In this document: positions 55,849 to 57,667 of the stretch, one piece after another | Layout: every line of letters begins with the position of its first letter | How positions within the stretch are numbered: position 1 is the first letter of the stretch | From: Bacillota bacterium | Lineage (GTDB): Bacteria; Bacillota; DTU025 | NCBI GenBank assembly: GCA_050951805.1 | Contig: JBMNJT010000004.1 | Coordinates: 141,096 to 205,095 of the forward strand | Length of the DNA stretch: 64,000 nucleotides | Direction of reading: 5' to 3' | Position numbers and translations under genes: made by a program | The notes under the pieces: generated by a model | What the model was told of the DNA's origin: nothing | The model's database searches: none | Seen by the model: only the letters and a program-made list of their open reading frames with translations

Positions 55849-56316
55849 GTGCAAGGGCAATGTTTGGGAATTATTGTTTCTGGAGAGTCTGTAATAGGTG
55901 ATCATCTTAACTGTGGTCAGGATACACCTCAACTTGTTAACCAGTTTACTTGGAAATTGCAGCGGGGTGATCGAGTAGATGCTTACTGTAGAATGTGCGA
56001 GAGAGTGGGCAACTACGTATCCAACGAAGACATACGGGAAGTTATCGTCAAAGCTAGTGCTGTCGGACCAGCCGGGCTAGGATTATCCCACCTGCAATCC
56101 GCGGAGTTACGTGGGGTAGTGTGCGTAGCAGCAAGAATGGAAGGTGCGCGCGTCTCGCTTGTTCAGAAGTCGCAGATTAGTCGAACATTCGGTTCCAAGA
56201 AGGTAGACGAATATACTGCCGACGACACATACTGGGAGCATGCCATTAGTGGTGATATTACCAGGTCCCGACGTGAAGCTGCTCTGCTTATTCTAAGTCA
56301 AAGGGACGAATCGTGA
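55849..56316 (+). CDS. RuvC/RNase H-fold protein with degenerate catalytic residues (155 aa)
   Basis: Purine-rich RBS, then GTG 55849. Segments CLGIIVSG, EVIVKASA, AELRGVVCVAA, VSLVQKSQISRTFG and RREAALLIL are co-linear with RuvC ILGIDPG, FAIEQ, GQARGVAIVAA, VFEYAARQVKQTVVG and DAADALAIA (by eye). Confidence 0.6.
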   Translation: MQGQCLGIIVSGESVIGDHLNCGQDTPQLVNQFTWKLQRGDRVDAYCRMCERVGNYVSNEDIREVIVKASAVGPAGLGLSHLQSAELRGVVCVAARMEGARVSLVQKSQISRTFGSKKVDEYTADDTYWEHAISGDITRSRREAALLILSQRDES

Positions 56317-57362
56317 TGGCGAGGCCAGTGATTTCGGCTCTTCATATTGGCTCACAACTCGGTGAAGGCCAGTTCGGGAAGGTATATGAAGGTCTTCACC
56401 CCATTCACGGCTCCGTAGCAGTAAAGGTTCTTGAGCGCCTCCGGAATGAACCGGAGAGCGAATGGAATTTGCGGAAGGAACATCTCTTAGTAGAAGGGCG
56501 TCGACTTAAGGACGCTGAGCACGACCGGATCGTTCGAGTATTTGATGTATCCCATGATGTTCACACGGACAGGGTTTATTTAGTACTTGAGTTGTGTTCC
56601 CAAGGCTCGCTGGAAGATTTCTATGTCACTGGGCCACTCAGGTTGTGTAGTGTGCGGGATTGGATTACCGATGTGGCATTGGGGCTTGACTGCATCCACT
56701 CACGTAATCTTCTTCATCGCGATATTAAGCCTGCCAATATTCTTATCGGGGCTGATGGAAGAGCGAAGCTGGGTGACTTCGGCTTAGCTACTGACCGCTT
56801 GATTCTTGGTTACGGTTCGATGCGAGGTTATTCTGATCACATTGCCCCTGAAGTCTGGTTGAATCGCCGGACCAGTATCCGAAGCGATATCTGGGCCCTT
56901 GGAATGACGATCTACCGCTTGCTGCATGGCCAGGCGTTTTATGACGAACATGCTCGTCCTCGAGATAGACATATCGTGAGCCAAGGCGGATATGCTGCGC
57001 GTTTACGATGGTTGCCTCATGTGCCCAAAGCGTGGCGATCGCTTGTAAGAAAATGCATGCACGATGATCCTAACAGACGTTATCACAACGCTCAGCAAGT
57101 GCTTTCGGCGCTTGCTAGCCTTCCAGTTACGGATGAGTGGTCATGCAAATACACCTCTTCTCGTGTGACGTGGAAGCTGAAATATGAAAAACGCGCCCGT
57201 ATTGTAACGCACGAGATTTACTCCCCGAGGCGCCACGAGTGGCACGCTGTAAGCGTTCCTAGGACTTTGCCAGGCAGGAAACGCAAGTTGGCTGGTTCAG
57301 ACGGCGTTGTCAACAAGAATACTGCTGTTAGGGGATTGGAAGAATTCTTTGGTAGCAGATGA
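56313..57362 (+). CDS. Soluble Hanks-type Ser/Thr protein kinase with a short basic C-terminal domain
   Basis: LGEGQFGKVY, VAVK, HRDIKPANIL, DFG, APE, SDIWALG. No TM segment or PASTA. GTGA overlap with the upstream gene. Confidence 0.93.
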   Translation: MMARPVISALHIGSQLGEGQFGKVYEGLHPIHGSVAVKVLERLRNEPESEWNLRKEHLLVEGRRLKDAEHDRIVRVFDVSHDVHTDRVYLVLELCSQGSLEDFYVTGPLRLCSVRDWITDVALGLDCIHSRNLLHRDIKPANILIGADGRAKLGDFGLATDRLILGYGSMRGYSDHIAPEVWLNRRTSIRSDIWALGMTIYRLLHGQAFYDEHARPRDRHIVSQGGYAARLRWLPHVPKAWRSLVRKCMHDDPNRRYHNAQQVLSALASLPVTDEWSCKYTSSRVTWKLKYEKRARIVTHEIYSPRRHEWHAVSVPRTLPGRKRKLAGSDGVVNKNTAVRGLEEFFGSR

Positions 57363-57403
57363 GTATGTGGTAAGTAGGCTAATTCGTATAAGGTGGTGTG
57401 AAC

Positions 57404-57667
57404 ATGCTTGTCCGATATTTACCCTGTAGGTACTGTGGCAAGAGATGGAGACCTGATGACGAAGTGAATGTTCTACAATCATATTGCCCGTATTGTTCTC
57501 AAGATAGAGGGGCCGAGGCCGATCGACAGCACTCAACTTATGCGCGATCTATCATGCAGGTAGGTAGGTATACCTTGTTGACAACGCATCCTGATGATAT
57601 TACAGGCTTGGAAGACAATAGAAAACTACATCCTGCAACTGCCCCGGAATGGTGGACAAGACGTTAG
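57404..57667 (+). CDS. Small Zn-ribbon protein (CxxC-x16-CxxC)
   Basis: CRYC...CPYC. RBS AAGGTGG about 40 bp after the kinase stop. Confidence 0.55.
   Translation: MLVRYLPCRYCGKRWRPDDEVNVLQSYCPYCSQDRGAEADRQHSTYARSIMQVGRYTLLTTHPDDITGLEDNRKLHPATAPEWWTRR

Follow-up and report, generated by a model that had tools for sequence, protein, structure and literature searches.

A conserved trio of a RuvC-fold protein, a Hanks-type kinase and a zinc-ribbon protein as a candidate conflict module of bacteria

PD-T4-6 is a single-gene kinase defence system of Escherichia coli, and HipBST consists of three small genes, which encode the kinase toxin HipT of the HipA family and two small partners of other folds. 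The abortive-infection Ser/Thr kinase Stk2 of Staphylococcus epidermidis has been proposed to phosphorylate many proteins after an encounter with the phage protein PacK (PMC13276650). Here, we describe a trio of genes in which a kinase is likewise the putative effector. It lies in a stretch of 64,000 nucleotides from a Bacillota bacterium of the DTU025 lineage (GenBank assembly GCA_050951805.1, contig JBMNJT010000004.1, positions 141,096 to 205,095 of the forward strand), which we call the window and which is numbered from its first nucleotide. The three genes encode a small protein with a RuvC fold and altered catalytic positions (gene 1), a Hanks-type Ser/Thr kinase, and a small zinc-ribbon protein (gene 3). 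What is new relative to known kinase-based defence is the presence of two obligatory partners, one with a RuvC fold and one with a zinc ribbon. Our preferred interpretation, in which confidence and doubt are about evenly balanced, is that the trio is a mobile, self-contained kinase-effector conflict module, acting in anti-phage abortive infection or in a manner like a toxin-antitoxin system, with the dead RuvC fold as its sensor or regulator.

The trio shares with HipBST the set of three small genes, of which one encodes a kinase that is probably the toxic component and the other two encode small partners, and differs from it in having a Hanks kinase rather than one of the HipA family and in the folds of the partners. 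Among the models of the defence-system library PADLOC, mad6 of the MADS system is the best match to the kinase domain (2.8e-60); however, MAD6 has about 610 to 660 amino acids, and the kinase scores 108.7 bits against the cut-off of 460 for the MAD6 family NF047741. No other mad gene was found in the window region around the module, which is flanked by polysaccharide genes and an element of the insertion sequence (IS) family IS21. The PADLOC models for PD-T4-6 also match the kinase (best E 9e-44, residues 9 to 273), but this is a generic kinase-domain match of models that respond to any Hanks kinase domain, and PD-T4-6 is one gene whereas the trio is a fixed set. According to the accessible text of one study, the same models flag a kinase in every Streptococcus thermophilus genome analysed, a protein that carries a kinase domain and tandem kinase-binding modules and resembles the PASTA type (PMC11514479). 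Because the models flag this ubiquitous kinase too, a PD-T4-6 label would say little about the trio. With Stk2, the trio has in common a soluble Hanks-type kinase proposed as effector; the comparison is by description and not by sequence, and the accessible text mentions no RuvC-fold or zinc-ribbon partner of Stk2 (PMC13276650).

The partners have relatives of their own. Gene 1 has the fold of RuvC (PF02075) over its whole length, the same size, and the R-G-V motif in helix B, but it has no PF02075 match, its positions corresponding to the catalytic D-E-D-D read I/V, K, G/S and E, and it is always paired with a kinase. The C-terminal domain of TEFM is a further structural match (Z 12.5); it is eukaryotic, and its context is unrelated. 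The RuvC-like domain of TEFM is inactive. DUF3010 (PF11215) is described, in the accessible text, as a single-domain family of bacterial RNase H-like proteins near the junction resolvases that keeps its active site (PMC3985635), which sets it apart from gene 1. Matches of gene 1 to DUF3010 stay below threshold (five of 31 family members, best E 0.021, none for the window protein), and in the Atlas the family is no more than a lead. We found no named system that matches the trio and no model for gene 1 or gene 3 in four libraries, in line with the original prediction, which had recognised none from the window sequence. The full-text literature likewise contained no description of the combination of RuvC fold, kinase and zinc ribbon, a search that covered neither subscription papers nor supplements, whose tables could name it.

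The original prediction treated the three genes as one system, and their wide co-occurrence agrees with this. When one genome from each of 185,579 species was scanned, 35 loci with gene 1 were found, distributed over Alpha-, Beta-, Gamma- and Deltaproteobacteria, Chloroflexi, Cyanobacteriota, Planctomycetota, Verrucomicrobia and Binatia. A kinase of the same subfamily follows gene 1 in all but two of these loci (L035 and L036 lack it); an arrangement common to 33 of 35 unrelated genomes is more than chance. In 30 of 31 loci, the start of the kinase frame lies between -11 and +3 nucleotides relative to the gene 1 stop; in the exception, L027 from an uncultured proteobacterium, a 1.2-kb insertion (6483-7713) parts the two genes. 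The zinc-ribbon gene is present in 29 of the 33 kinase-bearing loci, as an open reading frame (ORF) with a double CxxC motif in 28 and by tblastn only in one more. It was not found in L019, L025 and L034, and L007 ends at a contig edge. The co-orientation of all three genes noted in the window holds in its own clade but not elsewhere: gene 3 has the same direction only in L002 to L004, the closest relatives of the window locus, whereas in 26 of 29 loci it faces the kinase in convergent orientation and often overlaps the kinase stop.

Gene 1 and the kinase have also diverged together. Their pairwise divergences are congruent across 26 loci (Mantel r 0.83, with none of 2000 permutations as high). 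The genus of locus L022, Pseudomonas, gives a closer view: gene 1 occurs in six of 301 species genomes, and the C-terminal domain of the kinase (E <= 3e-27) occurs in five genomes, all among those six, with two further matches that are marginal (E ~1e-4). All three genes are under purifying selection, the ratio of nonsynonymous to synonymous substitution rates (dN/dS) being 0.04-0.07 for gene 1, within 0.04-0.09 for gene 1 and the kinase together, and 0.13-0.36 for gene 3. We would expect gene 1 and the kinase to form a complex, because they appear to be co-translated, diverge together, and part company, with gene 1 left without the kinase, only in decayed copies. Structure prediction of this complex gave run scores of 0.00, 0.80 and 0.00, which speak neither for nor against binding.

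In the window, the + strand carries three ORFs in order, at 55630-56316 (228 amino acids), 56313-57362 (349 amino acids) and 57398-57667 (89 amino acids). With gene starts assigned as explained below, the features of the locus are as follows.

55849-56316, + strand: gene 1, 155 amino acids, RuvC fold without the acidic tetrad, from homologue lengths, an AlphaFold2 model and structure searches
56313-57362, + strand: Hanks-type Ser/Thr kinase, 349 amino acids, from a Pkinase match; its start overlaps the gene 1 stop
57102-57359, + strand: C-terminal domain of the kinase, basic, five beta strands and a helix, from alignments and an AlphaFold2 model
57404-57667, + strand: gene 3, zinc-ribbon protein of 87 amino acids from ATG 57404 or 89 amino acids from GTG 57398, from invariant Cys residues
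55830-55837, + strand: Shine-Dalgarno-like GGAAGGAG, a putative function, from sequence reading
55528-55716, + strand: 3' fragment of pgi, context outside the module, from a PF00342 match
58012-60572, + strand: IS21-family element (IstA, IstB), context to the right of the module, from inverted repeats and Pfam

The 228-amino-acid frame is the usual gene call for gene 1; it begins inside the pgi fragment and is 73 codons too long, as the original prediction had supposed when it ascribed the first 73 residues to readthrough from a pgi remnant and trimmed the gene to a RuvC-sized frame. Over its first 29 residues, it weakly resembles the C-terminal end of PGI in Pfam (E 0.036, which does not reach the cut-off). 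A database cluster of the over-extended protein has 11 member sequences at 228 amino acids, against 155 for the true protein. GTG 55849 is the correct start because 66 homologues, mostly of 151-158 amino acids, begin at the same place, five residues ahead of a conserved LG; the purine-rich GGAAGGAG lies 11 nucleotides ahead of it. The junction between gene 1 and the kinase reads cGTGATGg, in which the gene 1 stop TGA (56314-56316) shares nucleotides with GTG 56313 and with an in-frame ATG at 56316. With either start codon, the kinase start is predicted to be coupled to the gene 1 stop, as had been proposed. For gene 3, ATG 57404 is the most likely start and preferred over GTG 57398, judging from its place 7 nucleotides after AAGGTGG and from its agreement with the N-termini of relatives; it lies 41 nucleotides after the kinase stop. 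No hydrophobic segment was detected in any of the three proteins (kinase maximum KD19 0.77).

The RNase H/RuvC fold first suspected for gene 1 is supported by structure. An AlphaFold2 model built with 31 homologues as input reached a predicted local distance difference test (pLDDT) score of 92.8, and a Foldseek search with it ranked RuvC of Thermus, Deinococcus, Pseudomonas and E. coli first, over the full length (E 3.6e-8 to 3.3e-6, template modelling (TM) scores 0.72-0.79). In VIA, an independent all-against-all structural search, RuvC of Pseudomonas aeruginosa and Thermus thermophilus scored Z 17.0 and 16.8, the best superposition covering 149 of 153 residues with a root-mean-square deviation of 2.5 (Z 17.0), and the matches that followed (TEFM, Ydc2, MOC1 and phage RuvC) reached Z 12.5 at most.

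The link in sequence is weak. Identity to RuvC is 10-15%, and gene 1 has no family match in Pfam, NCBIfam 20.0, PADLOC 2.0.0 or PHROGs; PF02075 gave no match at E <= 1 for the window protein and is not among the 17 families matched by 31 family members. The sole match by sequence in the PDB, 'Alr5209 protein' (6omx), spans 35 residues at E 0.034. An hhalign comparison with RuvC was weak (probability 7%, E 0.005, 56 columns); in it, the catalytic E65 of RuvC is aligned to the invariant K68 of gene 1, and the invariant R83-G84-V85 to R88-G89-V90. A profile search of 1.84 billion representative proteins found a rare family of 201 clusters, far too few to include the RuvC family; the best 150 of these 201 matches are all of 254 amino acids or fewer, and no fusion of gene 1 to another domain occurs among those 150, the longest having 254 amino acids. 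Because the sequence link from hhalign and the profile search is weak, the suggested homology to RuvC has its basis in the fold and two short motif matches.

The catalytic residues appear to have been lost. The resident genome has a separate, true RuvC (PF02075, E 3.6e-52), and in this protein and that of 11 relatives D5, E65, D138 and D141 are invariant. At the corresponding positions, gene 1 has I9 (I/V in the family), K68, S140 (G/S in the family) and E143, so that only E143 is kept; the original reading of about I/K/R/E was close, with R141 and R142 lying alongside. In the motif register of LGIDPG with LGIIVSG, I9 falls at the first Asp, and in that of DDxADALA with SRREAALL, S140 and E143 fall at the last two positions of the tetrad. 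No acidic residue occurs at the beta-1 position in any of 31 gene 1 sequences. K68 is invariant in the same 31 sequences, as are S70, E86, R88, S111, D125, R142 and E143. This pattern suggests that gene 1 is a descendant of RuvC that has kept the fold and the RGV helix motif and is predicted to be unable to cut by the RuvC mechanism. A RuvC fold with its helix-B motifs in place and three of four acidic residues lost may bind without cutting.

A RuvC-like protein that is predicted not to cut, in a cell that keeps its true RuvC, could also be a decoy. Gene 1 would then mimic host RuvC and trap a phage protein that targets Holliday-junction resolution, and the kinase would thereby be released or activated. 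The absence of the catalytic tetrad fits this idea, as does the structural proximity of gene 1 to bacterial RuvC (Z 17) compared to other RNase H-like proteins (Z 12.5 or less). However, our analysis gave no sign of a phage-encoded RuvC inhibitor, and mimicry of the RuvC surface is doubtful because identity is only 10-15%. We therefore regard the decoy as very unlikely.

The kinase was predicted to be catalytically complete, soluble, and equipped with a basic, beta-rich tail, and the family bears out each of these features. Its match to Pkinase (PF00069) is strong (E 1.3e-47; 162.8 bits against a cut-off of 31.7), and the G-loop, VAVK, alpha-C Glu, HRD, DFG and APE motifs are all present. All 27 aligned kinases share G19, G22, K38, E61, H135-R136-D137, K139, N142, D155-F156-G157, E180, D192 and R256. 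It falls far below the cut-offs for more specific families, with 118.3 bits against 450 for the Stk1/PknB PASTA kinase (NF033483), whose membership is also at odds with the lack of a hydrophobic segment and of a Pfam match in the C-terminal domain, and 49 bits against 990 for the PglW equivalog.

The last 85 residues of the kinase form a separate domain with W276, W287, R294, W310 and A312 invariant. In the AlphaFold2 model (pLDDT 88.8), a helix accompanies five strands, and the domain is basic in the window (isoelectric point (pI) 10.3) and across the family (median pI ~10). The fold has no Foldseek match at E <= 0.001 and none in Pfam or the Atlas. The best VIA match, a chain of an Rhs immunity complex at Z 6.5, is no clear fold match, and the chains of PARP WGR domains considered as candidates (Z 5.3, 4.8 and 4.7) lie within noise, with no Pfam match to WGR, so that kinship to WGR is a weak lead.

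Gene 3 is also conserved in its core. The CxxC-x16-CxxC protein that had been noted about 40 bp beyond the kinase has its cysteines at C10, C13, C30 and C33, and all 28 aligned sequences have these four residues and R37. The core of about 70 amino acids is basic, with a median pI of 10.0. Searches of Pfam, NCBIfam 20.0 and PADLOC 2.0.0 returned no family for it, only generic zinc-finger noise, and its match in PHROGs is phrog_33001 at E 0.0034. Contact with nucleic acid or a regulatory role is conceivable for two basic parts of the trio, the C-terminal domain of the kinase and the zinc-ribbon protein. The two arms of a 21-nucleotide inverted repeat (86% complementarity) fall in the 3' end of the kinase gene (57297-57317) and within gene 3 (57574-57594). 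We dropped the idea of an inversion switch around gene 3 because these arms do not bracket the gene.

The manner in which the trio decays points to the kinase as its effector. In seven loci, gene 1 is kept and the kinase is decayed: truncated in L025, in two pieces in L014 and L034, interrupted by an in-frame stop in L011, absent from L035 and L036, and reduced to about 48 residues in L059, the sixth Pseudomonas genome. In L027 and L038, insertions uncouple the kinase from gene 1. This pattern suggests the loss expected of a costly effector, and we assign that role to the kinase because it is otherwise intact and is the first part to decay.

Loss of the kinase with retention of gene 1 would also be expected of a tripartite toxin-antitoxin addiction module that senses no DNA, with the kinase as toxin, gene 1 as labile antitoxin and the zinc-ribbon protein as transcriptional regulator, an arrangement formally like HipBST. 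The antitoxin-first order and the 4-nucleotide overlap are typical of type II toxin-antitoxin pairs, PIN and AbiEii modules occur among the neighbours, and the distribution of the trio is patchy and single-copy. Nevertheless, the low dN/dS of gene 1, its full RuvC fold and its RGV motif exceed what a simple inhibitor peptide would need, and gene 3 does not lie upstream of the operon, the usual place of an autoregulator. In addition, on the S. meliloti plasmid pHRB800 (L038, 22017-24246) the IS5-like element ISRm4-1 breaks gene 1, yet the kinase ORF is open and annotated as intact. On this evidence, a pure addiction module is possible but unlikely.

The distribution of gene 1 is that expected of an accessory, mobile gene. 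It was found in none of 60 relatives of the window genome, two of the same genus and nine of the same family among them, and the six Pseudomonas loci have no flanking DNA in common. Defence genes are frequent in the vicinity of the trio, as had been anticipated, and include ShosTA, HmaC, type I restriction-modification (RM), retron, Qat and Lamassu genes. A survey of the two nearest ORFs on each side of each locus (124 ORFs) contained two ShosA genes, two mad3 genes, HmaC, a type IIG RM gene, dCTPase, AbiEii and PDC-M02B. HmaC (E 0) is immediately upstream of the module in L029, ShosA and ShosT are upstream in L032, and ShosA is upstream in L033. On pHRB800, annotated genes for DprA and a phosphoribosyltransferase lie directly upstream in an arrangement like that of ShosTA. 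Within 7 kb of the six Pseudomonas loci (67 ORFs), we found a type I RM set (E 0), a retron-type reverse transcriptase-Toprim gene (6e-226), QatA, QatC, LmuB and PrimPol.

These neighbours bear on a non-defence alternative, in which the kinase and a partner that binds DNA structures regulate recombination, repair or stress responses of the host. Many of the neighbours are housekeeping genes, the kinase domain is like that of ordinary bacterial Hanks kinases (118 bits to the PknB-type model), and the PD-T4-6 models, in the accessible account, extend to the ubiquitous, PASTA-type-like kinase of S. thermophilus (PMC11514479). A host regulator would hardly be expected, however, to be missing from all 60 relatives and present in 2% of one genus, to occupy a different site in each genome, to be disrupted so often, or to have strong defence genes nearby. 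We consider host signalling distinctly unlikely.

Several observations weigh against a conflict module with a DNA-sensing RuvC fold. The nearest ORFs are mixed, with many housekeeping genes (P-type ATPases, penicillin-binding proteins and ABC transporters), and the defence neighbours found with PADLOC are suggestive and not a measured enrichment over background. In the window itself, polysaccharide genes and IS elements lie beside the module, and no defence gene does. Homologues of gene 1 were absent from 50,697 phage records, and one, broken, was found in 72,556 plasmids. The copy on pHRB800 argues against gene 1 as an indispensable antitoxin, unless the insertion would silence the kinase as well. 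The putative placement of tetrad positions 1, 3 and 4 comes from motif register and not from residue-level superposition. Finally, gene 1 is near neutral (median pI 7.75), and its charge is therefore no sign of DNA binding; the true RuvCs of relatives, with a median pI of 6.2, are no more basic.

The window copy could also be an inert passenger, stranded between the remains of a gene and insertion sequences. The module is flanked by a foreign pgi fragment, IS21 and repeat DNA, and a consensus scan, which cannot prove absence, found no sigma-70-like promoter on the + strand upstream of gene 1. The pgi fragment at 55528-55716 corresponds to positions 423-485 of PF00342 (E 7.8e-13 in a whole-genome search) and contains one TAA. 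An intact pgi (G000:C4:115020-116492) is located on the same contig, 81 kb upstream; the fragment is clearly diverged from it, matches the pgi of relatives at 69%, and is therefore old or foreign rather than a fresh duplication. The fragment and the module may have been acquired together from a donor whose pgi gene was followed by the module. On the other side, the IS21 element that the original prediction had placed beside the module was located at 58012-60572, with 53-nucleotide inverted repeats and Pfam matches to rve and IstB_IS21, and has a very high depth in one metagenome run.

Set against this picture of debris, the three frames are intact and the invariant residues of all three proteins are present. 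Near-identical DNA occurs in metagenomes from anaerobic digesters, bioreactors and sludge, with at least half of its words present in 15 runs (20 matching rows from 15 studies), of which three may themselves be the source. Without a single mismatch, contigs of three RNA libraries cover the module at 56024-56236, at 56121-56343, which spans the junction of gene 1 and the kinase, and at 56637-56906. These belong to four short contigs in all on 55311-56906, for which DNA carry-over is possible and the uncovered parts are uninformative, and they give a weak hint that the module is transcribed. Passenger DNA is, in our judgement, highly improbable.

Other features of the surroundings can be described briefly. 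The stretch between the module and IS21 (57699-58064) is repeated DNA, and a metagenome contig that follows the module stops at 57689. Metagenome depth is about 900-1300 for the pieces at 57879-57984 and from 58015 on, compared to 6.6 for the module. After IS21, 60903-63652 holds several ORFs of 99-134 amino acids without a Pfam match, from which an earlier IS1634 label was not confirmed. To the left, 52089-55478 contains overlapping genes for polysaccharide modification, namely a DegT-like aminotransferase, a FemAB/GNAT-like protein, a bacterial sugar transferase and a GNAT acetyltransferase, with a G+C content of 0.42-0.46 compared to about 0.50 for the module.

How a conflict module of this composition might work can be outlined. 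The Hanks kinase would be the effector, and gene 1, made together with it through translational coupling, would restrain it until a trigger arrives. Phage DNA that is branched or undergoing recombination would be a likely trigger, as would a phage protein directed against RuvC. Phosphorylation of host or phage proteins by the triggered kinase would then stop growth or phage replication. The basic zinc-ribbon protein, usually with its own promoter on the opposite strand, would serve as a regulator or second inhibitor, and the separate, usually opposite transcription of its gene fits a separately controlled regulator. In this outline, we infer binding among the three proteins, sensing of DNA, toxicity of the kinase and an effect on phage. 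A more specific version, which we offer only tentatively and think rather doubtful, is that a dimer of the dead resolvase recognises four-way or branched phage DNA and pairs two Hanks kinases, which would set off an abortive phosphorylation response with a threshold fixed by the zinc ribbon.

Very few cases of kinase-based phage defence are known, Stk2 and PD-T4-6 among them, and little is understood of how these kinases detect an infection. The kinase of the trio has two fixed partners, one of them with the ancestry of a junction-binding enzyme, which gives a concrete idea of what may be sensed. In the literature, we found no description for bacteria of DNA-structure sensing tied directly to a eukaryotic-like kinase. 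Annotation hides gene 1 as a 'hypothetical protein', here over-extended by 73 codons, and the trio is invisible to defence-finding pipelines because its kinase would probably receive a generic kinase label or that of PD-T4-6. If our interpretation is true, the trio would clearly exemplify, in bacteria, the recruitment of a pseudo-nuclease as a regulatory subunit.

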